A stretch of DNA of 53,015 nt from a virus. Lineage: Duplodnaviria; Caudoviricetes. The stretch is from IMG/VR virus record IMGVR_UViG_3300040806_000113, positions 1 to 53,015 of that record; one strand, given 5' to 3'. This document shows positions 1 through 52,463 of the stretch, in pieces. Position 1 is the first letter of the stretch, and every line of letters begins with the position of its first letter. The notes beneath the pieces are model-generated. The model ran no database searches. It saw only the letters and a program-made list of their open reading frames with translations, and was not told where the DNA came from. The position numbers and the translations under genes are program-made.

Positions 1-742
1 ACGGGGGAACGATGTCTGGGTCGTACTTATCGTAGCCTTGAATCGAACGATAACCACCCTCGATAGATGGTTCGTAATTACGAAGGATACGAGCCGACCC
101 CGGAGCATTGATACCATGCTGCAACGGGGACATGTTCGTGATGAGGCCACCTTTAAATTCGATGGCGTATGTTTGCCAACGGTCAGGCATGGGCTTACGA
201 TGCCCTCATGTAGATGTTTTCGTTGACCGTTACTGTTCTCATCTGTTTGATACCCTCGTCGAACTTGCGTTGTGAAACCGATGCCATCTCTAGGTTGTCA
301 CGGAACATGTAGGCATAGTACATAGCCCCATCGATGATTACGTGACGAAACCGCTCTGGAATTGTCGGGACATCTGTATTGAGGATGAGGTCAACAGGGT
401 CCATGAAGTATTCGAAGTCTACCTGATAGGCTTTGTCTGGCATAGGAACTACGCCCCACTCACCATTTTGGGTACGGAACACACGCTCTGGAACCGCGCC
501 TAGAGCCGTGTTGGTTTCGTCCTCTTGGTCGATGAACCGGTCCACGTACTCGTCATAGCTAATCTGAGTAAGGTGTTCGGCTCTGCCTAAACCTAGAGTT
601 GTATCCCTGCGAACCCGATAGGTATCAAAATCAACGTACTTTGCTTGAGACGGAATAGGGTATCTGGTAACCCCTGCAGTTAAGGTTTGCTGATATGTGT
701 TGTGATTGAAGGGCCAGCCAAAGTGTGCCTGATTGATATGGC
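1..742. repeat. Terminal direct repeat, copy 1 (circular-assembly overlap)
   Basis: Near-identical to 52274-53015, with about 14 substitutions; it starts and ends inside genes. Confidence 0.95.
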
Positions 743-875
743 GAATAGAAGAGTTTACAGCTTCTTTGATTGCGCTGTAAAACCCCGTAGCTGACGCAAA
801 GTTCGCAGAGGTTAGCTGCGTCTCATTTAGGCGTTTGGCAACATCGTTGGTTAAGCTGAGATAATCATAGGCCAT
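195..875 (-). CDS. Tail tubular protein A / head-tail adaptor
   Basis: 226 aa; N-terminal 'LTNDVAKRLNE' and C-terminal 'DVPTIPERFRHVIIDGA' typical of podovirus adaptors; immediately upstream of the nozzle gene across the circular junction. Confidence 0.7.
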   Translation of the reverse strand: MAYDYLSLTNDVAKRLNETQLTSANFASATGFYSAIKEAVNSSIRHINQAHFGWPFNHNTYQQTLTAGVTRYPIPSQAKYVDFDTYRVRRDTTLGLGRAEHLTQISYDEYVDRFIDQEDETNTALGAVPERVFRTQNGEWGVVPMPDKAYQVDFEYFMDPVDLILNTDVPTIPERFRHVIIDGAMYYAYMFRDNLEMASVSQRKFDEGIKQMRTVTVNENIYMRAS

Positions 876-877
876 AG

Positions 878-1225
878 TTACCGGGTCCTTACTTTGAGGT
901 TAACGGAGCGAATAGCTGTGCTGCCTGTGGAGTCTGTCATCGTGCAGTAAAACGTGTAATTTCGGGTGTTTACTCCGCTGCCGATATTGATGGTAGCAAC
1001 CGTGTCGGTCTGTGTTTGGGACACATTTTGAATGCTGTCCGTGGTTGCTCCGCCTGATGCGGTAGTTAGGTCCTGACCCGAAGCCAAAACTGTACGGGTG
1101 GAATAGTCGTCGGTTTCCACAGACCAGACGACTGTGGAGATGGTTGCGGCACCAAGAAAGCGCGACCAGTCCATGCTGTAGTCGAGCGTCTCTCCGGGGT
1201 CTTTGAAGGGCCATTTGTATGACAT
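878..1225 (-). CDS. Virion structural protein (tail-associated, beta-rich)
   Basis: 'KDPGETLDYSMDW' motif seen in phage tail accessory proteins; tight packing in the operon. Confidence 0.55.
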   Translation of the reverse strand: MSYKWPFKDPGETLDYSMDWSRFLGAATISTVVWSVETDDYSTRTVLASGQDLTTASGGATTDSIQNVSQTQTDTVATINIGSGVNTRNYTFYCTMTDSTGSTAIRSVNLKVRTR

Positions 1226-1228
1226 AGA

Positions 1229-1336
1229 TTACTCCACGTAGACTGTTCTTGTAAAGCTGTTGCCGATACTTTCTACCGCAACAACCCGTGTTTCTTGGGG
1301 AACGTTGATTGTTCGTTCGTAAGTTGTAAGTGGCAT
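1229..1336 (-). CDS. Small hypothetical protein (35 aa, MPLTTYERTINVPQETRVVAVE...)
   Basis: Translated by hand; exactly fills the gap between its neighbours; below the ORF-track cutoff. Confidence 0.5.
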   Translation of the reverse strand: MPLTTYERTINVPQETRVVAVESIGNSFTRTVYVE

Positions 1337-1338
1337 TT

Positions 1339-2673
1339 TTAAGCTGCCCTGTCTATCACTGAGGTACGCCGTCTATCATATAGTTCGCGAACCGCGTTGA
1401 AATCGAAGTGTACTCCGGTATAAGTTCCGGTTCCGACAGTAAAGGTTCCTTGTACACCCGAAATTCCAGCGGTAGTGTGAAGCGTTAAGCTTCCAACGGC
1501 ACCTGCGGCTGCTACCCCTGTCGCTATTCTTTCGGTTGGTTGGTCTTCTACTGTGTTTACAAAACCAACAGCTTCAACACCTGTAAGTGTTAGATTGGCT
1601 GCACCTGTTGCTGTAACAATAATTACATTAGATGCTTCATTCGTAATAGTAGTAGAGCCATTTGTACCATCAAAATGAAGTAGTGCTTCTGTGCTTCCAT
1701 CTAAAGAGTATGCTTCTGTCTCAGGTGTAAAACTTGCGGCAGAAAGACCTGTTGGTGTAGATGCTCTAAATTCGTCTATGTATCCTGTAAATTCTTCAGA
1801 GCCATTTTCTTTAGCCCCAATTACATAGGTATGAGCATTGTATCCTGCACCTGCTTGCTGACCTCTTTGATATCCATCTACAAATACTTCGGTAAAGGCA
1901 AACCTTCTTTGTAGTCGTATATGATGCCAAGTATTGTTACTTAATTGTCCACTAACTGACCTAGTTATAGAATTATCTTTTATTACTTGAAGATTACCAC
2001 TACTAATACGTAAAGCAAAACCAGAGTTAGAGTTTTGTCCATCCCAAAGATGAGCAGTTTGACTTGTTAGCGTTGAAGAGTAAACCCAAAAATCTACAGC
2101 CCACTCTGAACTTGTTAACAGACTTGAAGTGTAACTTGTTGTTACAAAATCACCTGTTCCATCTAGTAGTAAACTAGCAGTGCCGAACTTCTTTTCTGCT
2201 GTAGAAAGCTGTGCATCACCACTTGCTGTAAAAGGTTTAAGAGAATTAAATTCTGCTTCTACCCCAGTAAGAACTTCAGCTAAATTAACCTGTACGGTTC
2301 CTGCGGTGCCTGTTGCACTCACACTGCCCAAAGCTTCAGTCGGCTTTTCTTCTACAGTGTTTACAGAGCCTGTAGCTTGTACTCCTGTTATTGGAGTATT
2401 AATGTTTTCTTTTACGGTGTTAACTGTACCTGTCGCTGACACGCCTACAACAGATACCTTAGTAAATATGTTTACGGTTCCTATTGAACCTGTAGCACTA
2501 ACACCTGTAGGAATACGTTCTGTAACATCTACTTCGAACCCGCCTGCAACTACGAGGGCTATCGCACCAGTCGCAGAAACTCCAGCTATGCTTGCTGTGA
2601 TATCTACTTCGCCGTATCGGGATGTGCCATATATGCCTACCCCGTACCGCGCTGACTGTGCTATGATAGCCAT
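1339..2673 (-). CDS. Tail fibre/spike protein with LamG (concanavalin A-like) domain
   Basis: GVSATG repeats flank a domain with 'KFGTASLLLDGTGD', 'DFWVY', 'WHHI', 'VFVDG' and 'FTGYIDEFR'. Confidence 0.75.
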   Translation of the reverse strand: MAIIAQSARYGVGIYGTSRYGEVDITASIAGVSATGAIALVVAGGFEVDVTERIPTGVSATGSIGTVNIFTKVSVVGVSATGTVNTVKENINTPITGVQATGSVNTVEEKPTEALGSVSATGTAGTVQVNLAEVLTGVEAEFNSLKPFTASGDAQLSTAEKKFGTASLLLDGTGDFVTTSYTSSLLTSSEWAVDFWVYSSTLTSQTAHLWDGQNSNSGFALRISSGNLQVIKDNSITRSVSGQLSNNTWHHIRLQRRFAFTEVFVDGYQRGQQAGAGYNAHTYVIGAKENGSEEFTGYIDEFRASTPTGLSAASFTPETEAYSLDGSTEALLHFDGTNGSTTITNEASNVIIVTATGAANLTLTGVEAVGFVNTVEDQPTERIATGVAAAGAVGSLTLHTTAGISGVQGTFTVGTGTYTGVHFDFNAVRELYDRRRTSVIDRAA

Positions 2674-2683
2674 AGCCGTCTAC

Positions 2684-3121
2684 CTACGCAATGCGAATTA
2701 CGGCGTTGCTTGCATCCGCAGCAGGGAATTCAATAGTCAAGTCACCGGCAGTTGCACTAACAGTTCCGCCGAAGTCGATTACACAGATTGCTTTGTTTGC
2801 CTGTGCTGTGTTATAGATAATACAACCATCTGCGGATACGGTAACGTCTGCGAACACTTCGTCTGTAAAGTCGACGATTGCGGTGGAGCCGTCCAGAGAG
2901 ATAGTTGCACCGTCAAGAACCTGACCACCTGTTGTGTAGTTGGTTCCGCTGGCTTCGTCGCTGTTGCCGGTTACATCTGAATAGTTGGTTGTGCTGGCAT
3001 TGTAGGTGCCACTGGGGGATGCTTTAATTAGAGCAAGTTTCAAGGAATCGGTATCCAAATCATGGACACCACCAAGAACCTCTTGCTTGAAGCTATTACA
3101 CATTGCAGTTGTAATTGCCAT
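2684..3121 (-). CDS. Conserved virion structural protein
   Basis: 'MAITTAMCNSFKQE...LKLALI...DFGG' resembles a widespread phage tail-associated family. Confidence 0.6.
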   Translation of the reverse strand: MAITTAMCNSFKQEVLGGVHDLDTDSLKLALIKASPSGTYNASTTNYSDVTGNSDEASGTNYTTGGQVLDGATISLDGSTAIVDFTDEVFADVTVSADGCIIYNTAQANKAICVIDFGGTVSATAGDLTIEFPAADASNAVIRIA

Positions 3122-3133
3122 GATTTGTGTCTC

Positions 3134-3472
3134 CTAAAGTGAGGTTTCGAAATATTCTTCTAATGCGATTGAGATATTTACCGCGCTATTTGCGCTGGCT
3201 AATCCGCGAACCTTATCGCCGGGGTGCAGATATAAAGGATAGTCTGTAATTTGAAGCAGGGAATTAGGCTGAAGAACCACAGCTTCTGCCAAAGTGTGAT
3301 ACGTTGTAGTAGATACTTCGTACCAGTCTAAACTAAAAGTAACGGCACTGGTAGATGCGTTGTTTATATATATGCTATTAACATCACTCGTAAACCGTGT
3401 AGGAACCGTGTAGATATCCGCGTTACTTGTGGTAAGTACAGTTGCAAGAGTGCGTTTTTTACGTTCAGCCAT
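3134..3472 (-). CDS. Hypothetical virion protein
   Basis: 112 aa, beta-rich, 'IYTVP' motif; coupled start/stop with its neighbour. Confidence 0.55.
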   Translation of the reverse strand: MAERKKRTLATVLTTSNADIYTVPTRFTSDVNSIYINNASTSAVTFSLDWYEVSTTTYHTLAEAVVLQPNSLLQITDYPLYLHPGDKVRGLASANSAVNISIALEEYFETSL

Positions 3473-4239
3473 TATAATAAGTTATTGTCCACAAGGACAC
3501 CCTGAAATGAAGCACCGATTAGATTGTTTGAATTAGAACAGAATGCACGGCACTCTATATCTGTCTTCTCTGGAAAGCGTAGTGGGTACTCATACTTAGT
3601 AATAAGCTGGTTACTTTGTAGTGTGTTAATAAACTGTTTACGAAATACGCCGCCAAACTCACGAACTGAAAGAGATACTACAGCGTAATTATTAGCTAGA
3701 CTAATAGCAGCAGTAAAGTTAAGGTCATCTAAGAATAGACTTCTACCAGCAGGTACAGTGTACAAAGCCATCTGCGTTTGATTGCCGTTAGATAAGTTAG
3801 CGTAGATAGTGCCACCACCTGTTGTCTGAATAAGGATTGTACCAGCGGCAGTGCCAGCAGAACCAGCAGTCAGTACGAAGGCACGGTATACACGTAGCCA
3901 ACCACTAGCATCGCCAACTTGTACTTCTGTCGTACCGTTCAGTGTTACATCAACACTCTGGAATACATAGTTCTCATCTAAACCTTGCACCCTAACTGTA
4001 CGTGCGCCTGTACCAGCAGAAGTATCCGCTGCATCGTCACTAACTATGTAAGCTGTAAACGCCGCTGTAGGCCACGGATAATTACCACCCTGCGTCCATA
4101 TAGTTTCTTCTGTACCATTAATATCTGAGTTAAACCCGAACTTATATAGAGACTCATGCCCGAAGACATCTCCACGAGATACCTGTAGGTCAAAGGGTGT
4201 ACCTTCAAGAATAACTTCTGGGTAGCTAGTAATACCCAT
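3472..4239 (-). CDS. Conserved hypothetical phage protein (probably structural)
   Basis: 255 aa intact ORF; 'KFGFNSDI...ETIW', 'GTGARTVRVQGLD'. Confidence 0.6.
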   Translation of the reverse strand: MGITSYPEVILEGTPFDLQVSRGDVFGHESLYKFGFNSDINGTEETIWTQGGNYPWPTAAFTAYIVSDDAADTSAGTGARTVRVQGLDENYVFQSVDVTLNGTTEVQVGDASGWLRVYRAFVLTAGSAGTAAGTILIQTTGGGTIYANLSNGNQTQMALYTVPAGRSLFLDDLNFTAAISLANNYAVVSLSVREFGGVFRKQFINTLQSNQLITKYEYPLRFPEKTDIECRAFCSNSNNLIGASFQGVLVDNNLL

Positions 4240-4240
4240 G

Positions 4241-4501
4241 CTACTTTACCCTTCTGTAAGGCTTCGTTTTAGCCTGTATCTTTTTAGGTTGTTTGGCGAC
4301 TTGCTTACCAGCTCTAGTTGCTCTTCTTTTAGCAGCAGTGGTTTTCGCATACTCTTCCTTCGATAACGCCTTGATTGCTTTTGCCGGTAGATAACGTTCT
4401 CCGGTTGCTTTGGGTCCCTGTGTGGATGGCTTTCCACTTGCGGTTCTCCACTTTTGATTTGTCCAAGCCTTCAAACTACGTTGTGGTTTGCGAAGTGCCA
4501 T
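4241..4501 (-). CDS. Small basic protein
   Basis: 'SLKAWTNQKWRT...TGERYLP', Lys/Arg-rich. Confidence 0.6.
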   Translation of the reverse strand: MALRKPQRSLKAWTNQKWRTASGKPSTQGPKATGERYLPAKAIKALSKEEYAKTTAAKRRATRAGKQVAKQPKKIQAKTKPYRRVK

Positions 4502-4600
4502 TACTTGTCCCAATTAAACACGTCGCGGTGCTTCTTCCAGAACCAATTGCCTACACGAGTAAAAGGCTTGCCAGTATTTAGCAAACCCAATGCAAGGTAC

Positions 4601-4786
4601 TTAATAAAAATCGATGTCATCCTCGATTTCTTCCATTGCATCAAGCTTTTGATTTGCGTCAACCCACTCTCCCAAAGCAGCGTTAAGCCGTTCGAGATTG
4701 TCTGTACAATGTTTAAAAGTGTATTCCGCATTCTTCTTCTGTGCCTCGTATTTATGTCTTAGGGCTTCTATAGCTAACTGACGCAT
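4601..4786 (-). CDS. Hypothetical protein
   Basis: GAGGAG RBS and a perfect promoter directly upstream. Confidence 0.6.
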   Translation of the reverse strand: MRQLAIEALRHKYEAQKKNAEYTFKHCTDNLERLNAALGEWVDANQKLDAMEEIEDDIDFY

Positions 4787-4804
4787 GGGTTCTCCTCTTG
4801 ACTT

Positions 4805-4833
4805 ATTATAGAAGATAAACCTGTCTGTGTCAA
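4805..4833 (-). promoter_or_regulatory. Consensus sigma70 promoter
   Basis: TTGACA-17 bp-TATAAT on the minus strand. Confidence 0.85.
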
Positions 4834-5279
4834 ATGTTTTGTATGACTACCCATAGTATAGGTAAAATTAAAGAGATAAAAAGGACGATTAATCCCAGCA
4901 TACATAAATTATAAATTAACTCGTCGCGTTTCTGGGCGGCTAAAATCTCCGCTTCTTTTTGTTTCTTACGCAATTCGCCTTGTATTCGTATGATTTCCTG
5001 CCACGCATTCATACCGTGCTGCCCGATAACGAAATTGCGAAGTTCGTTTTCCATCTGTTCAGCCTTTTTCTTGGCTGCGAACGTCTCTAGGGCTTCTTCC
5101 TCTACACTGCCAAATCTACGTCCTTTGGCTTTGCTGTGACTAGTCTTCACGGCGGAGATGGCGTTCATCCAGCGACCTAAATCACCGGACATCGACTCAA
5201 TTTCTTTGCCTACCTGTATGCCTTTTTTGATTGTATTGTAGGCTGTGGTTGCAACAGTGATAGCGGTAATTGGGTCCAT
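4830..5279 (-). CDS. Membrane protein with C-terminal TM helix
   Basis: 'MDPITAI' start, coiled coil, hydrophobic C-terminus. Confidence 0.65.
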   Translation of the reverse strand: MDPITAITVATTAYNTIKKGIQVGKEIESMSGDLGRWMNAISAVKTSHSKAKGRRFGSVEEEALETFAAKKKAEQMENELRNFVIGQHGMNAWQEIIRIQGELRKKQKEAEILAAQKRDELIYNLCMLGLIVLFISLILPILWVVIQNI

Positions 5280-5286
5280 AGCTTCC

Positions 5287-5466
5287 TCATTTTGGTGTTG
5301 GTTTGCATACCGCTGTTATTTTAATTCGTCTGCTATCTCCTACGGGGACTGGTCGTTGGTTAGACAACCGTTCTGCAAAGTATAGGCATTTGTCAATATC
5401 TGCGAACCGCTGGGTCTGGTCGATGAGAGTTGCACCCATGTAAACAGTGAGAACGAACTCAATCAT
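5287..5466 (-). CDS. Small protein with hydrophobic N-terminus and two Cys (59 aa)
   Basis: Translated by hand (MIEFVLTVYMG...DKCLYF...AVCKP); ATGA overlap with the upstream stop. Confidence 0.6.
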   Translation of the reverse strand: MIEFVLTVYMGATLIDQTQRFADIDKCLYFAERLSNQRPVPVGDSRRIKITAVCKPTPK

Positions 5467-5651
5467 TGGTCCTGCAACAACAACAGTTCTAGTCTTTGGA
5501 TAGCCATCTTCATGTCTTGGATAGCGTCCTTGTCTGCGTGACTAACTTGCATATTGCTAACAGTGATAGTTAAGTCGTGGGTTGTTTTCAGGTTCCAACC
5601 AGCAAGGCCAATCATAATAGCCATCAAACCCGTAATAATTTGCTTTTCCAT
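5463..5651 (-). CDS. Small membrane-anchored coiled-coil protein
   Basis: N-terminal TM helix followed by a coiled coil. Confidence 0.55.
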   Translation of the reverse strand: MEKQIITGLMAIMIGLAGWNLKTTHDLTITVSNMQVSHADKDAIQDMKMAIQRLELLLLQDQ

Positions 5652-6013
5652 CAGTCGCGATACCCGCCACCCGCCTTCTTATAGGCTGCGGCTAACATCT
5701 GTGCTTTACGGGCTGACCACTGACCGGGTTTGCCACCCTTGCCACCGGCCTTAATCTGTTCGAAAAGTCGCTTTCTCAAGGTTGGCTTAGTGTAGTTGCC
5801 AGCTTCATTAACTCGACTCTTGCTCTTCGCTTTAGACTTCGACGGTTTGCTAGTTTTTGCAACTTTCCCGCCTTTCTTGAGTTCTTGCTTTTTCTCCACG
5901 CCGCTAAGTTTTCCGGCGTTGGCTGTTGCGTAGAAGACTTGCTCACCCTTTTTACCCCCGTAGGTTTGTTTCATGTTAGACATGATTTTCTTACCTTTAG
6001 TTGTTAGGGGCAT
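5651..6013 (-). CDS. Small basic protein
   Basis: 'MPLTTKGKKIM...GEQVFYA...NYTKP...GGKPGQWSARKAQ', very Lys-rich. Confidence 0.65.
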   Translation of the reverse strand: MPLTTKGKKIMSNMKQTYGGKKGEQVFYATANAGKLSGVEKKQELKKGGKVAKTSKPSKSKAKSKSRVNEAGNYTKPTLRKRLFEQIKAGGKGGKPGQWSARKAQMLAAAYKKAGGGYRD

Positions 6014-6207
6014 CAGTCTTTTTTCCAATCTTCGTAAGCTTTTTTAACACTCATACCCAGTTCTTCGTACCAAGATTTTTCAGCACTATCCGCAGCTTTT
6101 CGGCCCTTATTAGAACTCATCCCTAATTGTTCCCAAAGAGATGTGTCAGGCTTTTGGGTTTGGTCCCAAACTTTAGCCTTGCCTTTAACAACCACAGCTT
6201 TTCCCAC
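6013..6207 (-). CDS. Hypothetical protein
   Basis: GTG start, fills the gap; internal repeat WEQLGMS/YEELGMS; GRKA motif. Confidence 0.5.
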   Translation of the reverse strand: MGKAVVVKGKAKVWDQTQKPDTSLWEQLGMSSNKGRKAADSAEKSWYEELGMSVKKAYEDWKKD

Positions 6208-6208
6208 T

Positions 6209-6694
6209 TTAAAATTCTCCCGCTTTCATAGCGTCTGAAAGTTTAACAGCCCGTCTACCGACCTGCCGTGCCCACCGCGAATCCATCATCTCTATCGCGG
6301 CAATATCAAACCGACCTTCGTGGATAGCGTTCCACATATTCTTGAACTTACACAGCCGGGGGACACCCATATTGAATGCCATGTCCATGAGAATTAATTG
6401 GCGAACAGAGTCGAGGTTTTCTACGCACGGGTGAACTTTACAGAGTTCGTTCTCTACGATGCGAATGTCGTTGAGGGCAAGATACCGTGCATCAGCTTCG
6501 GTAATACCGTGGTCATAGACTATGCCCATATTGGGGATGTCCATGTAATCTAGTTCTTCTTTGGTGATTCCCCGGTCTTTGAGATTGCGACCGATACCTA
6601 TAGTATCGATGCCCAAGCTATCTTCGTAAACAGTCAGGACCATACCTTCGTGTTCGATAAGTTTATCTAGGAAATGCGAAGTATTGTATTTCAT
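6209..6694 (-). CDS. Endolysin, T4-type lysozyme (GH24)
   Basis: Catalytic E-x8-D-x5-T ('HEGMVLTVYEDSLGIDTIGIG'), 'MAFNMG', 'SRWARQVGRRA'. Confidence 0.9.
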   Translation of the reverse strand: MKYNTSHFLDKLIEHEGMVLTVYEDSLGIDTIGIGRNLKDRGITKEELDYMDIPNMGIVYDHGITEADARYLALNDIRIVENELCKVHPCVENLDSVRQLILMDMAFNMGVPRLCKFKNMWNAIHEGRFDIAAIEMMDSRWARQVGRRAVKLSDAMKAGEF

Positions 6695-6930
6695 TTCCGT
6701 GACTCCGTAATACGATGGTTAGACTGACCGGGATTTTTTCCCTCGTGGTTCATCCACACAGCGAACGCTCCGGTCATTGCGCCAGTTACAACAGATACTA
6801 AACCAGCCTGTGCTGCACTGGGTTCTGGTAAGGACATAAACCACTCGACGACACGCCAACTCATCAGCGTCATTACGAGCATCATAAATCTTGGTAGGAG
6901 TTTCCATTCAAGTATCTTTTCTGCAGCCAT
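6691..6930 (-). CDS. Small two-TM membrane protein (lysis module)
   Basis: Two hydrophobic helices, located between holin and endolysin. Confidence 0.6.
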   Translation of the reverse strand: MAAEKILEWKLLPRFMMLVMTLMSWRVVEWFMSLPEPSAAQAGLVSVVTGAMTGAFAVWMNHEGKNPGQSNHRITESRK

Positions 6931-7313
6931 TATTTTTTACCGAAGAATTTAGTTGCCGAACGAACTCCAAAAGAAGCCGCAACGATAACTCCAAGTGAGT
7001 ATTGATACCATTCAGGCATTTCGTTGAGTCGTGCGAATCCATTTGCTACCACGTCTTCCATACCGGGAACGAAAGCTAAAATTAGCGGGATACTAAATAA
7101 GATAGTGAGCCACTCGTCTTTCCACGAGGACTGACTACCTTTAGCCATCTCCAAATCCCAATCAATCTCTCCGGTAGCTTTCTTTTGCATGACAACAGCT
7201 TCAGCTTGTGCCATAGCTACCTTCGTTGCAGACTGGGCTTTCTTTTCTTCTACTTTGCCGCTCAACCAAGTGCTGGCTAAGTCGGCTACGGGTCCAATTA
7301 ATAAGTTTAGCAT
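6930..7313 (-). CDS. Holin (3-TM, GTA-holin-like)
   Basis: 'SWKDEWLTILFSIPLIL...PEWYQY...ASFGVR'; adjacent to the lysozyme. Confidence 0.7.
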   Translation of the reverse strand: MLNLLIGPVADLASTWLSGKVEEKKAQSATKVAMAQAEAVVMQKKATGEIDWDLEMAKGSQSSWKDEWLTILFSIPLILAFVPGMEDVVANGFARLNEMPEWYQYSLGVIVAASFGVRSATKFFGKK

Positions 7314-7314
7314 G

Positions 7315-7593: not shown

Positions 7594-7620
7594 AGGGTTT
7601 ACCCCCGGCAAAGGTTATTG

Positions 7621-7672: not shown

Positions 7673-7681
7673 GACGGTAGA

Positions 7682-8128: not shown

Positions 8129-8141
8129 ATCTCAGTCCCCC

Positions 8142-31687: not shown

Positions 31688-31689
31688 TC

Positions 31690-44983: not shown

Positions 44984-44999
44984 ATCTAAATCCTATCTA

Positions 45000-46331
45000 T
45001 TAAGATGCGGCCCAGCGAATAAACCAATTGCCCAAGCCCTTCATCAACTCGTCTTTTTGTTCTTGGCTGTACATGTCCTTGGCGTTTGCATAGTTAAAAG
45101 CAATCCGGGCCAAATCATGTTCGCGGGCCAGCGCATTTTCACTTTTCTGAAAGTTCCAAGCTGCGTTGTCGCGGTAAGATTGCCAAAGGTTGTTCTGAGC
45201 GTTCGCAGTCATGTTGTAAGCATTTTGAGTGTTTATACGGTTGGTTTCGTTTTGGATAGCCGTGTTCGCAGTGTTGATTTCCCTGCGCCAAACGACATTC
45301 GACTGGTCAACCGCGAACTTCATCTGCGAGTTGAACTTGTCCCGCGAATCCTTCATGCTTGCATTGAACTGGTTCATTGCGTTAGCTTCGGATGTATTGA
45401 ACTGACGCATAGCAGCAACACGGTTCGCGTTCGCAGTATCCACCTGTGCGCCTAGTTCCGCAAAGAACTCTTCTACCTGCAGTTCATTCTTGGCGTTGAA
45501 CTGACGACGGGCATTCTCTTCAGCGGCATCCTTGAACAGCCCTTGAACCAAGCTTTGGTAAGTTAGGGTGTTTGCTTTTTGTTCGTTGTCAAGGTTCTTT
45601 AGGTCTACAGACAGGAATGCCTGTGCGTTTGTAACGGCAGCCGTCATGCGGGCATTCAAATTAGCCTTGTCCATCGCCGCGAACGTAGCAGCGTTAGCTA
45701 GGGCAGTTTGCTGCTTGTTGTTGAGGTTCGCTAACTGGATGGTTGCGTATTTGTTCGCATCTTGCTGGGCAATAGTAACCCCAGATTCCATCAGGGCCTG
45801 TGTCATTGCGGCCCCTGCCATCGAACTGGCACCCAATCCACGAGCCTGCATAATGGAACCAATTTTGCGAACCGCTGGAGCAGCCCAAGGGGGCATTGGC
45901 GCACCACTTTGCAGGGATGACATTAGCTGACCTAGCTGATACTGTGTGGTAGCCCGTGGGTCTAGCTGGTCTGTTGCTGCAGTAGCAATAGCCCCTGCAG
46001 AGGGGCCAGCTTGTACACCTGTCATATCAACGTAAGGGCCTGTGGGGGTTAGGGTTGCCCCCGTCATTGGTCCCAAGGCTGTTAAATCGGTTGTTACATC
46101 ATCTACCCCTGCGATTTGCCCGACCCCCGGAGCAACGCCAGTAGGGGCTGTGGTGGTTAAACCAGAGGTGTCGGCAGTGGTGGTTCCGGCAGTGGGGGCT
46201 GCACCCACAGTCTTACCGGAAGTGTCCATTATAGTGTCTGGAGTTTCCGAAATAAAGGTCGGGGTTACCGTTGGCATATCGCTAGTGTCTCCACCAGCCG
46301 TTTTTTCCATTTCTTTTTTTATATCCACCAT
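45000..46331 (-). CDS. Putative internal virion/pilot protein
   Basis: Gln/Asn/Ala-rich coiled coil ('QFNA' repeats), 'ARGLGASSMAG'. Confidence 0.6.
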   Translation of the reverse strand: MVDIKKEMEKTAGGDTSDMPTVTPTFISETPDTIMDTSGKTVGAAPTAGTTTADTSGLTTTAPTGVAPGVGQIAGVDDVTTDLTALGPMTGATLTPTGPYVDMTGVQAGPSAGAIATAATDQLDPRATTQYQLGQLMSSLQSGAPMPPWAAPAVRKIGSIMQARGLGASSMAGAAMTQALMESGVTIAQQDANKYATIQLANLNNKQQTALANAATFAAMDKANLNARMTAAVTNAQAFLSVDLKNLDNEQKANTLTYQSLVQGLFKDAAEENARRQFNAKNELQVEEFFAELGAQVDTANANRVAAMRQFNTSEANAMNQFNASMKDSRDKFNSQMKFAVDQSNVVWRREINTANTAIQNETNRINTQNAYNMTANAQNNLWQSYRDNAAWNFQKSENALAREHDLARIAFNYANAKDMYSQEQKDELMKGLGNWFIRWAAS

Positions 46332-46334
46332 ACC

Positions 46335-46559
46335 CTAGTCCCTTTGCAAAACCTTATCCAACTTATCCTCGACCCGATGCAAGGCTTCCATGACCTGCCG
46401 CATATCGTTGCGAACATCTTCACGAGTTGCGTACTCTTCGCGTGTCTTGTTAACCAAGATACTCAAGCGTTTCTGTTCACCGTTTTGTTCCTTTAGGAAC
46501 CACGCCAGACCAGCCACGAACAGGCCGATGAGCATATCGATGAGGCTGGTCATGTCCAC
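46335..46559 (-). CDS. Small TM plus coiled-coil protein
   Basis: Hydrophobic N-terminus; 'LVNKTREEYA...RVEDKLD'. Confidence 0.6.
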   Translation of the reverse strand: MDMTSLIDMLIGLFVAGLAWFLKEQNGEQKRLSILVNKTREEYATREDVRNDMRQVMEALHRVEDKLDKVLQRD

Positions 46560-46569
46560 TGGTCAACCC

Positions 46570-46812
46570 CTACGCTGTGTAGGAGTTGCCAGCAGAGATA
46601 GCGGCATTGGCTGCTGTCATGTCTTCTGTAGTCCAGAAGTCTTTTGCAACCATGATTTCCAGATGCTCAACATTACGGTCTACGCAATCCTGCTTATCTG
46701 CTGCATCATCGTCTGCCATAGCTGTGCCAGCAATAATAGCATTGATGAGGTCAACGCTGTGACCCATTGCTGTGTAATGCTGTGCGATTTGTTCTGCTGT
46801 TAGTTCGTCCAT
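46570..46812 (-). CDS. Tail-fibre-associated small protein
   Basis: Follows the fibre gene; AAGGAG RBS; 'RNVEHLEIMVAK'. Confidence 0.6.
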   Translation of the reverse strand: MDELTAEQIAQHYTAMGHSVDLINAIIAGTAMADDDAADKQDCVDRNVEHLEIMVAKDFWTTEDMTAANAAISAGNSYTA

Positions 46813-46829
46813 TTTAATCTCCTTGTAAA

Positions 46830-49800
46830 TTAGGACTCAAGTGCGGCTATACGAGCCTCTAGTGCTTCTATTCTTGCTGTTAATGCTGTGATTGTTTCTT
46901 GCTGTTCTTGGATGGCTTTGATGCACAGCGACACCATATTGCCGTAAGCTAATGCGTCTGGTTCGCCATCATCGTTATACTGCACAAACTCTGTAAGTCC
47001 AGCATCGTGGACTTCTTCAGCAATAAAGCCGCCAAATGTAATGCCACTTTCAGATTCTTTTTTGCTCCTGTATATAACAGACCGCAGTTTTAGTACGTCG
47101 GCAAGACCGTGTTCAGCGTCTTGAACATCTGTTTTGTACTTCAAAGAAGATGTTGCTCTGTACAAGTTTCCCGAAGAGTCAACATACACATTAGCCGTTG
47201 CCGCACCAGTAACGCTGTATACCTCTAAGCAAAACAAGCCAGAACCATTCATCCGCATCCGTGGATTACCATCGCCATCCGACAGCACGATGTAGTTGCT
47301 GGCTGTGCGGATGTCTAGGCCGCCTTGATTGCCCGAATATGAGCCAAGGATGGTGTTTTTAGAACCTGTTGTTATAGCCGCACCAGAAGCACCATTTGGG
47401 CCAGAAGGCCCGATAAATGTGTTATAATTGCCAGTAGTATAATATCCGCTCTGCAAACCAATGAATGTATTCCCAATACCAGTAGTATTACTAAACCCCG
47501 CCTGATAACCCAGTGCCGTGTTGTAGCCAGCGGTGGTGCTGGAGTTTAAGGTTTGATGACCAATAGACGTATTGTACGAACCAGTTGTGTTTGTATACAA
47601 AGCACCATAACCAAGTGCGTTATTGTGAGCGCCAGTGGTAGTTAAATATAAAGATTCACTTCCAACGGCATTGTTGTAATTGGCTGTCGTATTTGAACGT
47701 AAAGCACCATTACCGATTGCAACAGTTTTGGCTCCAGCAGTATTACTGCGCCCAGCCTCAAAACCCACAGCCGTGTTCCAGGATGCGGTGGTGTTGTTAA
47801 AAAGTGAATAAGAACCAAGTGCTGTATTGCCAATCCCCGATGTATTGGCGCCTAGTGCTTCTACGCCAAATGCCGCATTGTAATACCCAGAAGTATTACT
47901 ATCCAGCACCAATGCCCCGACACCAGTGTTAGCGGCAGATATATTATTAACACCTGTCCTATACCCCATAAACGTGTTGTAGTCTGAAGCCGTTGTTCCG
48001 CTATATCCAGCTTCGTACCCGACAGCGGTGCTGTAGTTGGCGGTGGTGTTGGCGTAGAGTGCATAACTACCATAAGAAGTATTGTATGCACCTGTAGTAT
48101 TTAACCTTGAAGCAAGATAACCCATTGCGGTGTTATCAACACCAGTTGTGTTAGCGTCTAACGAAAGATAGCCTAGTGCGTTGTTTCTTGTTCCTGTTGT
48201 ATTTGATTGCAAAGCAGCATAACCCACAGCAGTGTTGTTATTAGCGGTGGTGTTGGCTGTTAATGCACTATGACCAATAGCAGTGTTGTTAGCACCTGTA
48301 GTATTTGACTTTAACGAGTTGTAACCTAGCGCAGAATTATTATAACCAGTTGTGTTTAGCTGACCAGATGTAAAACCAATGTGAGCGTTCTGTTCGCCAG
48401 TCGTATTACTATACCCAGCCTGATAACCCACTGCTGTGTTGCCAGATGCGGTGGTGTTTTGATTTAAAGCTTGCATACCTACAGCAGTGTTATAGCTGCC
48501 TGTAGTCGATGAAAATAAAGCACCTTCGCCAACTGATGTAATATTTATACCTATTGTATTGCTATACAAATTAGCTTTACCCACAGCAACATTTGCTGAC
48601 CCAGTGGTATTACTATACCCAGCCTGATACCCAACGGCAGTGTTGTTGCTTGCGGTGGTGTTGGATAAAAGTGCAGAACCTCCAACTGCTATATTATTAA
48701 GTCCTGTGGTGTTATCTCTTAATGTAGATACTCCAACAGCCACATTTTCGTAACCTGTAGTATTATTAGCCAAAGAACCCCAACCAACTGAAGTCAATGA
48801 GAAACCTGTTGTGTTATCAAGAAGCGACTGATAGCCGATTGAGGTATTGTTTGCACCCGTAGTATTACTATAAGCCGCCTGATACCCCACCGCAGTGTTG
48901 TTAGCTGCAGTGGTGTTGTTTCTTAATGCAGCACTGCCTACCGCCACATTGTAATTACCAGTGGTGTTGTATTGCAGTGTTGAACCAGAGCCATACCCGC
49001 CACCTATCGCGGTGTTTTCTGTGCCAGTTGTATTAGAGTATAAAACAAAATAACCAAGAGCAGTGTTGCCATTGCCCGTAGTGTTTGAATATAAGGATTG
49101 AGTACCAATTGCGGTTGCACCTTCGCCAGTAGTATTGCTATACCCAGCCTCATAACCCACTGCTGTGTTGTTGTCGGCGGTGGTGTTGGAGAGCAGTGCA
49201 CCAGTTCCCATTGCTGTGTTGTATGACCCAGTTGTGTTTGTGTACAATGCTGGTATGGTTTCAGAGCCACCAAATGCGCTGTTACCTTGCCCTGTAGTGT
49301 TCAAACCTAACACATAATCACCAAAGGCACTATTATTAACACCAGTTGTATTATTTTGTGCGGCTCTGTTACCAACAGCGGTATTGCCAACAGCGGTATT
49401 TGCATACAGAGCCTGATACCCCACAGCAGTGTTGTTGCTTGCGGTGTTCGCTGTAAGTGCATCTGCACCAATCGCTGTATTTGACGCACCAGACACATTG
49501 CTGTCCAGCGCAGTATCACCCAACGCCACATTGTTTGTGCCAACAGGATAGTTACCATCCAGCTTAATTGTGCCGCCGTCTACACTGACATTGCCAGCTA
49601 CTGTGAGGCCGTCTGTGACTGCTGTGCCTGTTACGTCAATGCCTGTGGCGGTGGTTTCTAGTTTGTTAGAACCACCATAAAATAAAATTGCTGGCCCGCT
49701 TTCTTCTAAATATAGATAATTTTCTGTTCCTGCTACATTTTGAATGCGGACCTGATTGCTAGCTCTAATGTTTAAATCGCCAGTACCAGTATCATCAATG

Positions 49801-50279
49801 TAGCTGTTATTCCCATCATGGTAAATCTGCAAGTCAGACCCAGCACCAAAGATAGCCTTGTCGTTGTCGCCGAAGGTCAGGTCAGTTGAAGACAACGCAA
49901 CGACCCCTGTACCGTCTGGTGCAAGGGTGATGTTACCGTTTGTGTCGGTGCTTGAGATGGTGTTACCGTCTACACTGATGTTACCGATGTATGCAGCCCC
50001 GTCGAGATACATATCCTTGAACTGCAAGGCAGCGGTTCCAATATCCAACGTGTTCGTGGTCTTCGGCTTGATTTCTGTGGCACTTGCAATGAAATCTTGA
50101 ACCGGACCAAGCACGGTAATCGGCGCACCTTCTGCTGCCGTGCCATCGTGGGTGTGGCCCGTTGATTCGTTAAACGCAGATTCTACCGCATCGAACTCAC
50201 CGTCGAGGTCCGAAGCGTTGATGATGTTGCCATCTGCAATGTTATTACCTGTGTCGTTTCGTGTGTAACCTTGTCCCAT
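46830..50279 (-). CDS. Long tail fibre with ~14-aa NTT(G/A)xxNTAVGxxAL repeats and C-terminal intramolecular chaperone (peptidase S74-like)
   Basis: N-terminal anchor 'IADGNIINASDLDGEF'; dozens of repeats; 'SSLKYKTDV...GFIAEEV...IKAIQE' followed by a coiled coil. Confidence 0.85.
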   Translation of the reverse strand: MGQGYTRNDTGNNIADGNIINASDLDGEFDAVESAFNESTGHTHDGTAAEGAPITVLGPVQDFIASATEIKPKTTNTLDIGTAALQFKDMYLDGAAYIGNISVDGNTISSTDTNGNITLAPDGTGVVALSSTDLTFGDNDKAIFGAGSDLQIYHDGNNSYIDDTGTGDLNIRASNQVRIQNVAGTENYLYLEESGPAILFYGGSNKLETTATGIDVTGTAVTDGLTVAGNVSVDGGTIKLDGNYPVGTNNVALGDTALDSNVSGASNTAIGADALTANTASNNTAVGYQALYANTAVGNTAVGNRAAQNNTTGVNNSAFGDYVLGLNTTGQGNSAFGGSETIPALYTNTTGSYNTAMGTGALLSNTTADNNTAVGYEAGYSNTTGEGATAIGTQSLYSNTTGNGNTALGYFVLYSNTTGTENTAIGGGYGSGSTLQYNTTGNYNVAVGSAALRNNTTAANNTAVGYQAAYSNTTGANNTSIGYQSLLDNTTGFSLTSVGWGSLANNTTGYENVAVGVSTLRDNTTGLNNIAVGGSALLSNTTASNNTAVGYQAGYSNTTGSANVAVGKANLYSNTIGINITSVGEGALFSSTTGSYNTAVGMQALNQNTTASGNTAVGYQAGYSNTTGEQNAHIGFTSGQLNTTGYNNSALGYNSLKSNTTGANNTAIGHSALTANTTANNNTAVGYAALQSNTTGTRNNALGYLSLDANTTGVDNTAMGYLASRLNTTGAYNTSYGSYALYANTTANYSTAVGYEAGYSGTTASDYNTFMGYRTGVNNISAANTGVGALVLDSNTSGYYNAAFGVEALGANTSGIGNTALGSYSLFNNTTASWNTAVGFEAGRSNTAGAKTVAIGNGALRSNTTANYNNAVGSESLYLTTTGAHNNALGYGALYTNTTGSYNTSIGHQTLNSSTTAGYNTALGYQAGFSNTTGIGNTFIGLQSGYYTTGNYNTFIGPSGPNGASGAAITTGSKNTILGSYSGNQGGLDIRTASNYIVLSDGDGNPRMRMNGSGLFCLEVYSVTGAATANVYVDSSGNLYRATSSLKYKTDVQDAEHGLADVLKLRSVIYRSKKESESGITFGGFIAEEVHDAGLTEFVQYNDDGEPDALAYGNMVSLCIKAIQEQQETITALTARIEALEARIAALES

Positions 50280-50294
50280 AGTGGTATCCTTCTA

Positions 50295-52463
50295 TTACCT
50301 ACGCCCGTAAGTGCCGTATTCGAGCGTTAGAGCATCTAAAGAGTGTGGTGGGTTTGTTGAATTGGTTCGGAACTGTATCGAAACAACATACCCAGAGCCT
50401 ACTGTTTGGTTTTCAAAGAGGCGTTGTATCGTTCCGCCGTATGAGCCTGTTCCAAAAATGGAAGTTCCGTAAAAGGCCGGGGCAGTAGCCCCCGACGTGT
50501 TGTTAAATGAAAATGGGTTTGGTTGAATAATCCCAGCTTCGTCAAAATCAAATAATAGGTTTACTTCTGATGAGTAACTTCCCTGCGGGTCTGTGTACAA
50601 GAACATTTTGTAGATTGTCTTGCGAATGCGGGGGTCGTTGATTGGGATGTAAGGAGTGGCAAATGTCGAGTAGATGTCGCTCTCATCCAAGCTGTTCCCC
50701 GATTCCATCTGATAAACGTATCCGGTTGTGTTCGCGAACACGATGGTTTCAATTCCTTCGTAGAGATTGCTACTGGCAACGTACGCCTTGAATCCCCGCA
50801 ACTCTGCCCAGTTGATTCCCTGCTCCACCTGCGAACCGATGATACCCTGTGATGCGTCTGCCGAAAAGTTCGTGTTGTACCCAAACAGCCTGTACTGGCT
50901 CTTCGGTCTGATTACCACGCTACTAAACGAGGTGTTACGGTTCACAAAGTTGGTTACGTCATCTTGTATCGGCTTCGATACAACGGCAAGGTTGAAGTCC
51001 CCTACCCTGTCGGTTGCAGACAAACTTCGTATTCCGTCTGGTCCCAAGTAAAGTACGTCCCCGCCAATCTCTTGAATTGTGTCGGTTTTGGTACAGCCGG
51101 TATCCAGAGTAATAGGCTGAAGCTGGAAATCTCCAATCGTATTGCCTACCAGTCGCTTGATAGACCTCTCACTAAATATTATAAGCTGTTCTCTGAAAAT
51201 AATCAAGCCCGTAATTGCACTTCCGACATTTATTGTTCCTGCGCCACTTGCTGCAGAGAAGTCGTCGAAGGTATAAGGGGCTGTAAACAGCAGGTTCGAA
51301 CCCTTTGCAAAGAAAAGCTGGTTCTTGAAGTTTGCTACGTGGCCTGCGCCGTTACCGTCCGTAGGAATACTGTCGAGGGCGGTAAAGAACGTTCCGTCGT
51401 ACACAAATGGTACGTTGGCCCCATCGACCCCTACCATGTAGTCGGTTCCGCTGTAGTTGAAGTTCACGAACCGGTGTTTGTCCATGCCGGTGCGGTCTAC
51501 AGAAAGGAACGTCAAGGCTGCGTTATTTGCAGGGCTGCTGTTCAGGGCAGGGTCGATAGCAAAGGTTGCAGAGCCACTGGTAACCGTTGGGGTAGCTGTC
51601 AAGGTGTAGATTAGGTCTACGCCTGCAATCGTAAAGGTGTCGCCGACCTGTGGTGTTCCTGTGATGCCATCTACGACCAAGCTAGTACCGGTTTGCGAAC
51701 CGCCGTCTACCAAGACAGTACCATAGTTGGGTGTGTTTACCTTTGTCCACCCCGAACCCGTTGATTTAAACAGGTCCGAACCCCGTGCTGCAATCACTGC
51801 GCTTTCGAAGGTGTGTACCCCTTGAATGATTCCAGAGCCAGATACAAAGGTTAGGGCATCTTGGTCTGACGGGTTGACAACCATCGTTTGGTCTAGGGTC
51901 AAGGTAGCCCGTTTGTTCACAGAACTAAAAGAGACACCGCCAGATGCAATCGTGTAGCGGAACGACAGAACGGCATCATCTGCAGGTGCTACTGTGATTG
52001 CCGGAGTGATGGTCAGGGTAGATGCCGTACCTACGAGAGCGGTTGCGGCACTCACTGTGTAGACTGTGGTATCCCCAGCAATAGTAAATGTGTCGTTTGC
52101 AGATGGAGCAACATCCAAGCCATCTACGTCGAGGCTCGTTCCTGTCTGTGCCGCGCCATCTACAGCCCCGCCAGCAAGAGAAAACACGTCGGTTGCGGCA
52201 GGTTCGGTGTAGATGTTGCCGACAATCAGGGTTGTGCCGCTCTGTCCGTTGCCGTGAACCAGTGGCGCACCGTACGGGGGAACGATGTCTGGGTCGTACT
52301 TATCGTAGCCTTGAATCGAACGATAACCACCCTCGATAGATGGTTCGTAATTACGAAGGATACGAGCCGACCCCGGAGCATTGATACCATGCTGCAACGG
52401 AGACATGTTCGTAATGAGGCCACCTTTAAATTCGATGGCGTATGTTTGCCAACGGTCAGGCAT
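50295..52463 (-). CDS. Tail tubular protein B / nozzle with inserted repeated beta domains
   Basis: 722 aa after the adaptor; 'NYEPSIEGGY', 'TIQEIGGDVLYLGPDGIRSL'. Confidence 0.75.
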   Translation of the reverse strand: MPDRWQTYAIEFKGGLITNMSPLQHGINAPGSARILRNYEPSIEGGYRSIQGYDKYDPDIVPPYGAPLVHGNGQSGTTLIVGNIYTEPAATDVFSLAGGAVDGAAQTGTSLDVDGLDVAPSANDTFTIAGDTTVYTVSAATALVGTASTLTITPAITVAPADDAVLSFRYTIASGGVSFSSVNKRATLTLDQTMVVNPSDQDALTFVSGSGIIQGVHTFESAVIAARGSDLFKSTGSGWTKVNTPNYGTVLVDGGSQTGTSLVVDGITGTPQVGDTFTIAGVDLIYTLTATPTVTSGSATFAIDPALNSSPANNAALTFLSVDRTGMDKHRFVNFNYSGTDYMVGVDGANVPFVYDGTFFTALDSIPTDGNGAGHVANFKNQLFFAKGSNLLFTAPYTFDDFSAASGAGTINVGSAITGLIIFREQLIIFSERSIKRLVGNTIGDFQLQPITLDTGCTKTDTIQEIGGDVLYLGPDGIRSLSATDRVGDFNLAVVSKPIQDDVTNFVNRNTSFSSVVIRPKSQYRLFGYNTNFSADASQGIIGSQVEQGINWAELRGFKAYVASSNLYEGIETIVFANTTGYVYQMESGNSLDESDIYSTFATPYIPINDPRIRKTIYKMFLYTDPQGSYSSEVNLLFDFDEAGIIQPNPFSFNNTSGATAPAFYGTSIFGTGSYGGTIQRLFENQTVGSGYVVSIQFRTNSTNPPHSLDALTLEYGTYGRR

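Follow-up and report, generated by a model that had tools for sequence, protein, structure and literature searches.

A short asymmetric DNA word built into the genome of an uncultured phage through synonymous codon choice

Why would a virus write one six-letter word into its DNA well over a hundred times? The question is raised by the IMG/VR virus record IMGVR_UViG_3300040806_000113 (Duplodnaviria; Caudoviricetes), the whole of which (53,015 nt, hereafter the window) was analysed for the hexamer GCGAAC and its complement GTTCGC. A sequence-only reading of the window had put the count at about 130 where 20–25 were expected, with matches on both strands and in varied frames, and had proposed a selected DNA-level signal laid over the coding sequence. 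We found 142 matches over the two strands, whereas dinucleotide shuffles gave 24.21±4.92 (largest 36; 0 of 100 reached 142). One of them, at 609, is repeated at 52882 in the duplicated end of the record, leaving a unique total of 141 in 52,273 bp. The set spans 609..52887 at a density of 2.68 per kb, with 74 copies on the + strand and 68 on the − strand. These occupy 133 separate places at a mean spacing of 396 bp, and the coefficient of variation of 1.01 is Poisson-like, which rules out regular spacing. All but 8 of the matches (134) fall within 71 crude open reading frames (ORFs), where they are spread over all six frame/orientation classes (34, 29, 28, 24, 11 and 8). Sense and antisense copies are near equal (66 and 68), which argues against an RNA signal.

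Silent codon choice and the form of the word

GCGAAC is the top hexamer of the window by base composition (6.2x), under a maximal-order Markov model (142 vs 106.8, z 6.1) and under a synonymous-shuffle null (z 16.6), and it exceeds its reversed control word 6.2 times (142 vs 23). The synonymous shuffle was performed separately for each of the 71 crude ORFs and keeps the proteins, the dipeptides and each gene's codon usage. It leaves 51.06±5.28 copies (maximum 70 in 300 shuffles) against the 142 observed, so that the enrichment does not vanish under the very treatment that the sequence-only reading had put forward as able to dissolve it. Permutation of whole codons leaves 35.6±5.1 copies. Under the synonymous-shuffle null the word and its sub-words lead the enrichment lists at every length from 4 to 8. 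Synonymous codons could encode the hexamer at 379 coding positions and do so at 134, where codon usage predicts 35.2. The word runs counter to that usage, since GCG, the first codon in one reading of it, is the rarest alanine codon (13%). A coding artefact is ruled out by the survival of the enrichment in both the synonymous and the codon-permutation shuffles and by the use of all six frames. GCGAAC is built into the genome almost wholly via synonymous codon choice, and the word is a maintained DNA-level signal, neither a coding nor an RNA signal. The selected signal that had been proposed is supported both by this shuffling and by the retention of sites in motif-rich relatives described below.

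The preferred sequence extends beyond the hexamer. The base preceding CGAAC is G in 46% of 308 CGAAC copies, and the 142 hexamer copies have a pyrimidine at −1 in 111 cases and at −2 in 125, T at −3 in 67, and C or A on the 3′ side in 103. Four octamers made of two pyrimidines and the hexamer occur 28, 24, 27 and 22 times (101 in total), where composition predicts 1.3–1.6 for each and about 6 in all. This 8-nt form with two 5′ pyrimidines fills 99 of its 210 encodable positions (47%), with 13.2 expected, a 7.5-fold excess. Past about 4 nt the flanks are random, which rules out a dispersed longer repeat. The unit is an asymmetric word of about 8 nt, composed of two pyrimidines, the GCGAAC core and then C or A, in which CGAAC is the most conserved part.

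Nine copies of a 10-bp palindrome, GTTCGCGAAC, had also been claimed, and all nine were found where they had been placed (Table 1); 100 dinucleotide shuffles gave a mean of 0.04 and at most 1. The palindrome is best read as two opposed words overlapping by two bases, each giving the other its pyrimidine flank. Only 9 of the 133 places are palindromes and, outside such overlapping pairs, the flank is any two pyrimidines rather than a mirror half-site, so the unit itself is asymmetric. The coding sequence could encode the palindrome at 14 positions, of which 9 hold it in full, 4 hold one half and 1 holds neither, and 21 sites lie one mismatch away from it (5.4 expected). Within the 5′ part of the primase gene, the palindrome at 26934 stands with further copies at 26862 and 26950, which makes three places in 94 bp, or four hexamer matches when the palindrome is counted on both strands. 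The only enriched start-to-start spacings between copies are 5 (nine pairs) and 3 (four pairs); the lack of any further fixed spacing rules out a composite site, and LexA boxes (GAAC-N4-GTTC, GTTC-N7-GTTC) were rejected since neither opposed copies 9 apart nor direct copies 11 apart occur.

No global strand polarity was detected (runs test z −1.42; 74 vs 68) and a genome-wide polarity was rejected. Its lack fits a circular or permuted genome, to which an end-directed bias may not apply. There is, within the window, one domain of strict orientation (Table 1) that lies mostly inside a single 1485-aa gene and switches at ~40.75 kb. To the left of the switch (37.5–40.7 kb) 13 of 20 possible + positions are filled and 0 of 9 possible − positions; to the right (40.8–42.2 kb) the figures are 6 of 8 possible − positions and 0 of 4 possible + positions. 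When the filled positions were redrawn within genes, the longest run of 15 had a P of 0.004 and none of 5000 redraws gave adjacent opposite runs with a total of 22, both statistics having been chosen after the pattern had been seen. Relatives that are 83–97% identical share the polar domain, by descent. The domain suggests that orientation can matter, a suggestion to which we give little weight.

Relatives, bacteria and restriction sites

Relatives were compared through 80 portal-centred IMG/VR loci (L001–L080) and a further set of helicase-centred loci. Enrichment among the portal-centred loci is confined to one well-supported clade of 18 members and is graded inside it, from 4.3–4.8x in the four closest relatives, and 5.4x and 5.1x in two others, down to 0.4–0.7x in L008 and L010; outside the clade it is ~1x or zero. 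In the 50 kb of HMO-2011 that were examined, 13 copies were counted where 17.6 are expected. The portal gene of every relative offers 13–19 encodable positions, of which 46 of 115 are filled in the window's subclade, 9 of 85 in L008 and L010–L013, and 34 of 833 in the 52 loci L029–L080. As the number of usable positions is equal, the difference is purely one of silent codon choice. Window sites were kept at 17 of 19 places in L001 (all-hexamer control 0.71), 15 of 16 in L002 (0.60), 18 of 21 in L003 (0.59), 12 of 19 in L005 (0.36) and 11 of 21 in L007 (0.31), while L010–L012 keep 0 of 26 where hexamers generally are kept at ~0.23. By these alignments, word sites are preferentially retained in motif-rich relatives. 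Which of a small set of usable places are occupied changes from relative to relative, with density kept, and this points to a distributed signal rather than to individual operators. Judged from these loci, the trait belongs to one sub-lineage of HMO-2011-type phages: the search of relatives that the sequence-only reading had called for shows that close ones share and retain the word, and that HMO-2011 and distant ones have no enrichment.

In the helicase-centred loci the trait is stronger and more widespread than in the portal-centred ones. All 15 loci whose helicase is at least 91% identical to that of the window are enriched 5.2–9.2x; helicase identities of 77–84% go with 1.6–8.9x and those of 69–73% with 0.8–4.0x. 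One 46.5 kb IMG/VR contig, which appears among the loci three times (L014, L238, L319), is a mosaic with a helicase 98%, a 1485-aa protein 91% and a portal 85% identical; the word stands at 8.1x around its helicase (L238) and at 2.7x around its portal (L014). Several sub-lineages, whose flank preferences differ, have the hexamer as their top word. The CGAAC core also occurs with another preceding base, the T form reaching 5.9x in L285/L294 and the A form being the top word in L314–L316; no substitute word was found in lineages without the word. Rich and poor lineages both have the core replication genes and differ only in small accessory ORFs, a contrast that is confounded by relatedness. One of these is a small lysine-rich ORF at 26431-26631 (−), in an AT-rich gap that separates the early operon from the replication operon. 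Homologues could be detected in 13 of 14 rich, 6 of 16 intermediate and 2 of 11 poor loci (those of at least 12 kb), with exceptions in L315 and L316, which have a homologue of 58–60% identity yet stand at 1.3x, and in L286, which reaches 5.6x without one.

The idea that each clade has its own hyper-abundant word did not hold up, as the top words of other clades are strand-asymmetric codon repeats, with the exception of CTGCAG. This word is found at 6–10 times composition in low-GC relatives (L044; also L029–L036, L064). In L044 the Chi octamer of E. coli, GCTGGTGG, also occurs six times in the same orientation within 18.5 kb, where 0.15 are expected; all are on the portal-gene strand, and glycine codon repeats may explain them. 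Viral contigs with the palindrome beside another copy of the word were represented by 80 loci analysed among the matches listed, which include one relative (L115). The other listed contigs are mostly high-GC with a codon-driven hexamer, at up to 2–4.7 copies per kb, and no unrelated phage of similar G+C with the signature was seen among the palindrome matches listed.

Bacterial genomes were surveyed in a sample of 401 Alphaproteobacteria and 401 Gammaproteobacteria; the host is not identified and may lie outside this sample, and the tallies include genomes flagged unpublished (G044, G244, G443, G545, G700, G712), on no single one of which a claim rests. None of the 802 genomes reaches 2.68 per kb, the maximum being 1.61 per kb, and the hexamer exceeds its reversed control at most 3.5 times in them (window 6.2 times), examples of the excess being G706 (8573 vs 2478) and G329 (4450 vs 1476). 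Two pyrimidines precede the hexamer in 24–41% of copies in four sampled genomes, as opposed to 71% in the window; the four are among the richest, the densest genome, G423, falling outside this sampling (first contig 1,587 bases). The palindrome occurs at most 20 times in any of the 401 Alphaproteobacteria, in 1.9 Mb. Such saturation is not a common bacterial property. Relatives of the portal turned up in bacterial genomes at only 8 loci, in metagenome-assembled genomes (MAGs) of unrelated taxa, and these look like binned phage contigs.

The window also bears an extreme signature of restriction-site avoidance. GATC is absent, where synonymous shuffles give 151 and composition predicts 206; 25 of the 64 six-base palindromes are missing, for which 283 occurrences are expected in total; and CCWGG is nearly lacking (2 vs 71), while CTCGG occurs once (51 expected) and GAGCT 5 times (64 expected). 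This suggests that the phage meets many restriction systems in heavily restricting hosts. The GATC-free state holds in L001–L010 and L014–L028 and not in L011–L013 or L029–L080, which is a wider clade than that of the word, and L305, L308 and L309 have the word (3.8–4.0x) yet contain GATC. Because the two ranges differ, avoidance and enrichment are separate layers. The word as a by-product of palindrome avoidance found no support, since L008, L010 and L017–L025 are GATC-free and palindrome-poor and yet stand at 0.4–1.8x.

Genome context and placement of the word

By its gene content the window is an HMO-2011-type podovirus. The record is a whole virus record whose last 742 bases (52274..53015) repeat bases 1–742 at an offset of 52,273 (99% identity between bases 1–300 and 52274–52573, the 300 nt compared) and whose ends cut through ORFs. 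The repeat looks like a circular-assembly overlap, so that the unique genome is ~52.3 kb (52,273 bp), probably assembled in circular form; the overlap suggests a circular or circularly permuted genome. The nearest cultured phages (pelagiphages, roseophages and HMO-2011) have a portal identity of only 44–53%, and public runs containing the phage sequence carry estuary metagenome labels. Gene assignments come from scans of 20 ORFs against PHROGs and 30 against Pfam, in overlapping sets, with ~25 small ORFs outside the scans. The small-terminase gene lies at 18818-19222, and the small proteins encoded at 20-26.7 kb include those at 26012-26314 and 26431-26631. A neighbouring 307-aa product resembles Pam3 gp34 / DUF5895; no annealing protein or nuclease inhibitor was identified among the ORFs scanned, and a scan for tRNA genes found none.

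Table 1. Coordinates of word features, regions and genes in the window
Feature	Coordinates	Strand	Remarks
10-bp palindrome	1383..1392		two overlapping opposed word copies; coding region
10-bp palindrome	22789..22798		
10-bp palindrome	26934..26943		5′ part of primase gene
10-bp palindrome	28529..28538		
10-bp palindrome	28854..28863		extra word copy at 28871
10-bp palindrome	30562..30571		
10-bp palindrome	36653..36662		extra word copy at 36671
10-bp palindrome	42943..42952		
10-bp palindrome	50730..50739		
Strict-orientation domain, 4.7 kb	37476..42222		all + through 40708, all − from 40778
Regulatory intergenic region, 8 word copies	19438..20161		upstream of small-terminase gene; densest spot
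Two tandem 19-nt repeats, each with the word	20367..20404		inverted relative to 19866-19908 copies; 34-nt arms, 76% complementary
Longest word-free stretch	10376..12267		bases 10.9-11.9 kb unaligned with closest relatives
Second-longest word-free stretch	3212..5076		1,871 bp between matches
Word-free stretch	14804..16433		inside variable 687-aa ORF; unaligned in L001, L002, L004
Large virion-protein genes	37-46 kb		filled share 0.49
Replication genes			filled share 0.42
Early small ORFs			filled share 0.32
Tail-side genes	1-7.6 kb		filled share 0.33
Head and packaging genes			filled share 0.24
Tail-spike region			filled share 0.19
Major capsid protein	8142-9122	−	
Portal	11932-14058	−	
687-aa ORF, portal/large-terminase interval	14282-16345	−	weak integrase-like domain
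Large terminase	16349-18115	−	
Primase	26706-27500	+	DNA-primase PHROG matches, weak Toprim match, N-terminal CxxC...CxHxxC zinc finger
DnaB-like helicase	27460-28701	+	
Family A polymerase with separate exonuclease ORF	28701-30792	+	
Cas4-like exonuclease	31690-32583	+	
Ribonucleotide reductase	34290-36218	+	
Tail-spike-like gene with internal repeats	46830-50279	−	
Endonuclease I and MazG			also encoded; Pfam/PHROG scans

The share of encodable positions that are filled varies along the genome (Table 1). It is low in the tail-spike-like gene (3 of 22 possible positions) and in the genes for the major capsid protein (1 of 8) and the large terminase (2 of 13), the last two being well conserved. 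Segments that the sequence-only reading had described as motif-sparse prove to be gaps without any match (between matches at 1383-2850, 3206-5077, 8166-9690, 10370-12268, 14798-16434, 22964-24124, 46961-48392 and 49446-50730). Its further claim, that absence marks recent acquisition, held in part: the gaps at 10.4–12.3 and 14.8–16.4 kb are unaligned with the closest relatives, but the conserved capsid and terminase genes are poor in the word too. The tail-spike-like gene contains 9–13 diverged repeat copies at 47479-49446 whose spacings are multiples of 51 nt (17 codons), and the 687-aa ORF, which is variable among the closest relatives, gives a sub-threshold match to the phage integrase family (22.2 bits; cut-off 27.1).

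Clustering in the non-coding region at 19430-20160 had been noticed as well, and the 8 matches at 19441-20153 amount to ~4x the genome mean. These copies are embedded in two repeat families, one of 4 copies of 17–22 nt and one of 3 copies of 23 nt, and are conserved in L004, L005 and L007. The regulatory gap of 0.8 kb also holds divergent sigma-70-like promoters at 19492-19464 (−) and 19544-19572 (+), and terminator-like hairpins at 19658-19694 (+) and 20103-20068 (−). The + promoter (TTGACA, 17 nt, TACCAT) is followed ~110 nt on by the strong terminator-like hairpin ending at 19694. This unit of promoter and hairpin (19544-19694) is likewise conserved in L004, L005 and L007 and could be a small non-coding RNA; Rfam gave only sub-threshold matches on the intergenic region. 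Next to it, a non-coding block of ~110 bp at 19728-19840 aligns at 75–91% with many relatives, motif-poor ones included (L008, L009, L018, L023, L026, L028, L038, L041, L048, L052, L055, L065), and is the most widely conserved non-coding element seen in the window.

What might read the word

The explanation that we put first, tentatively and as a possibility rather than a probability, is that the word acts like Chi for a host recombination nuclease. It comes first because the features of the word fit those of words read by tracking enzymes, and because Chi enrichment is the only documented phage precedent. The word would be read on unwound DNA by an enzyme tracking along the genome, and a host nuclease of the RecBCD or AddAB type would recognise it; recognition would halt degradation of the linear, apparently circularly permuted phage DNA and switch the nuclease to recombination. 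Since entry could begin from either end of a permuted genome, both orientations would be needed. Protection of this kind would be especially useful in heavily restricting hosts, heavy restriction being what makes the protection of broken phage DNA valuable. In the passages cited from a study of Chi-rich phages (coliphages LLS and P1, and Pseudomonas phage MD8), the Chi sequence is the octamer found most often, ~25-fold over chance, overlapping octamers come next and codon usage does not explain Chi (PMC12315714). The window resembles these phages in that its commonest word of octamer scale is asymmetric, tens of times over chance and unexplained by codon usage, in that overlapping words follow it in rank, and in that lineages differ sharply in carrying it. 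There are also differences. The word stands once per 0.4–0.5 kb here and Chi once per 1.9 kb there; orientations are equal here (74 vs 68), lacking the bias toward a DNA end that cos phages have, whereas there 20 of 23 or all copies lie on one strand; and here the word has two degenerate positions and the phage its own exonuclease. The window's word equals no Chi sequence known to us.

Several observations weigh against a Chi-like role. A Cas4-like exonuclease and endonuclease I are encoded by the phage itself and, in the cited part of the same study, Chi richness in lambdoid phages accompanies lack of a recombination module (PMC12315714). The density of the word is ~4x that of known Chi-rich phages. 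The 802 bacterial genomes sampled peak at 1.61 per kb, below the window, and G203, G706, G329 and G608 rank the hexamer only 370th–475th and lack the pyrimidine flank. Enrichment persists in the GATC-containing relatives L305, L308 and L309; the motif-rich L325, whose version of the 1485-aa gene is 68% identical, has 20 sites of mixed orientation and no polar domain; and the word sits inside conserved repeats beside promoters, a placement that a Chi site does not need. Enrichment also tracks the replication module, which a phage-encoded reader explains at least as well.

That last tracking leads to a second possibility, which we regard as doubtful but worth stating, namely that the word serves as a genome-wide, phage-intrinsic mark for a reader from the replication module (the zinc-finger primase or a partner) and co-evolves with that protein across a widespread estuarine/marine lineage. 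A narrower version, in which the word is a start or loading site of phage replication, is unlikely. It holds that the zinc-finger/Toprim primase and DnaB-like helicase use a long template word that both strands need about once per kilobase to seed lagging-strand synthesis. The primase matches and zinc finger (Table 1), the Okazaki-like spacing of ~0.7–1 kb per strand (74 and 68 copies) and the use of an asymmetric word in either orientation all agree with it, as does the cluster within the primase gene. Enrichment follows the replication module more than the structural one, as in the mosaic contig (L238 vs L014) and in the fill of replication as opposed to head and packaging genes, and the drifting base before the core (T form, A form) is as expected of a drifting protein specificity. 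On the other hand, L297–L299 and L307, with helicases 72–73% and primases 55–56% identical, have neither enrichment nor a replacement word, there is no global strand switch such as an origin would impose, and a link with the replication module would arise just as readily if related modules go with related hosts. The cores that known primases recognise are trinucleotides, and we know of no phage genome enriched for primase sites. It is distinctly unlikely that the word is instead a site for a duplex-DNA-binding protein (a phage regulator, the small terminase, a small basic protein or a host nucleoid protein), many copies of which would coat, organise or mark phage DNA. The eight intergenic copies, which lie just upstream of the small-terminase gene within longer conserved repeats that surround divergent promoters, the filling of 9 of 14 palindrome positions with its surplus of one-mismatch sites, and the lysine-rich ORF found mostly in motif-rich relatives would suit such a protein. 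Yet the unit is asymmetric, with the palindrome accounted for by an overlap of two copies; strict local polarity is unexpected for a symmetric duplex site; the correlation with the lysine-rich ORF is confounded by relatedness and has its three exceptions; positions turn over freely, unlike operators; and the ORF scans showed neither an HTH nor an RHH family.

A neutral drive, in which a context-specific repair or replication bias resembling very-short-patch (VSP) repair, and possibly tied to the polymerase, converts near-cognates without function, is decidedly improbable. It would account for an enrichment that changes by degrees along the phylogeny, is weaker in variable or exchanged segments (as under amelioration) and travels with the replication module, and continual reconversion would also give the extra retention of sites; the origin of HIP1 has been ascribed to such a process in the cited parts of two studies (PMC4390886; PMC5861425). 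The expected very-short-patch-like signature was not found, however, as the four one-step transition neighbours are not depleted (28 vs 29.1, 33 vs 30.7, 57 vs 52.2 and 69 vs 47.9). A specificity of 8 nt with 7.5-fold filling is far above any known context bias, the ORF scans showed neither a methyltransferase nor a Vsr-like gene, and the number of encodable positions is unchanged, only silent sites responding, as under weak selection. Very unlikely, in our analysis, is a target of host DNA modification, whether by Dnd phosphorothioation of GAAC/GTTC or by an adenine methyltransferase of a BREX, type III or type IIL system, whose sites have A at position 5; more targets would then carry more protective marks. 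The word contains GAAC/GTTC, a tetramer that the synonymous-shuffle null ranks first in enrichment (781 vs 544) and that is, in the cited excerpt, the Dnd consensus in Salmonella and E. coli (PMC4507180), though this is resemblance only. Duplex marks lie on both strands and are orientation-free, which fits the 74/68 split; restriction pressure on the genome is heavy; and the number of sites could matter if, as excerpted, Dnd and Ssp hosts modify only a small share of consensus sites (PMC8053081). Against this, the specificity of the phage word reaches 8 nt, and GAAC with a preceding base other than C is enriched only ~1.2x (473 vs ~392). Scans of ORFs against the two databases, PHROGs and Pfam, turned up no modification gene, and an enriched target would normally raise vulnerability. 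Enrichment of the consensus is not a described property of phages, and we know of no precedent for enrichment of a restriction or modification target in one. Mimicry of the host's general oligonucleotide usage is hardly likely at all. Some bacterial genomes do have the hexamer at 2–3.5 times its reversed control (G706, G329) and high-GC phage contigs reach 2–4.7 copies per kb, but in rich bacteria it is one of hundreds of codon-driven words without the flank signature, whereas the window has 47% G+C and the word opposes its codon usage. The hexamer profile of the window correlates only poorly (r 0.27) with that of G203, the sole genome compared, and 0 of the 802 genomes, a small sample, reach the window's density.

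Other systems of abundant words offer partial likenesses. The uptake sequences of Neisseriaceae and Pasteurellaceae (DUS/USS) are asymmetric 9–12-mers found about once per kilobase in both orientations; they sit in genes and terminator hairpins of host chromosomes and serve DNA uptake by competent cells, and nothing ties the phage word to transformation. The stoperators of cluster A mycobacteriophages are 13 bp long, number ~25–35 per genome and are oriented with transcription. Like them, the phage word is asymmetric and present in many copies across coding regions; an operator or stoperator array was nonetheless rejected, since there are 141 sites with no transcription bias (66 and 68) and positions turn over among relatives. 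HIP1 of cyanobacteria (GCGATCGC) is, like the phage word, a hyper-abundant short word within coding sequence, maintained there by selection, not driven by codons or amino acids, and with a function left open in the cited parts of the sources (PMC5861425; PMC4390886). HIP1 differs in being a true palindrome of cellular genomes that is quasi-periodic and has two orphan methyltransferases. The phage word is asymmetric (9 of 133 places palindromic) with Poisson-like spacing, GCGATC is absent from the window (0 vs 18.7 expected), and scans of ORFs against PHROGs and Pfam turned up no cognate methyltransferase, ~25 small ORFs standing outside these scans and a host enzyme being a possible source. 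A literature search, supplementary tables outside its reach, turned up neither the word in phages nor motif saturation in phages of the HMO-2011 type. Phenomena of this kind are known from Chi-rich phages and HIP1; the word itself appears to be new, and its fill is unusually high.

Genome-wide selected words such as Chi, uptake sequences, KOPS and HIP1 have each revealed a machine that reads DNA in bulk. The carriers of this one are uncultured yet widespread estuarine and marine podoviruses, many environmental genomes share it, and it coexists with a near-complete purge of restriction palindromes. Should the word be the Chi of the host, it would provide a sequence handle for host assignment and the first Chi of that host group. 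Should it be read by phage proteins, it would represent a new kind of constraint on viral coding sequence and would mark module exchange, since imported segments stand out as motif-poor. If the mark is indeed phage-intrinsic, this would be the first virus found to recode nearly half of its available silent positions for its own DNA-reading machinery, and the drifting base before CGAAC in sister lineages would record the changing specificity of the protein that reads it.

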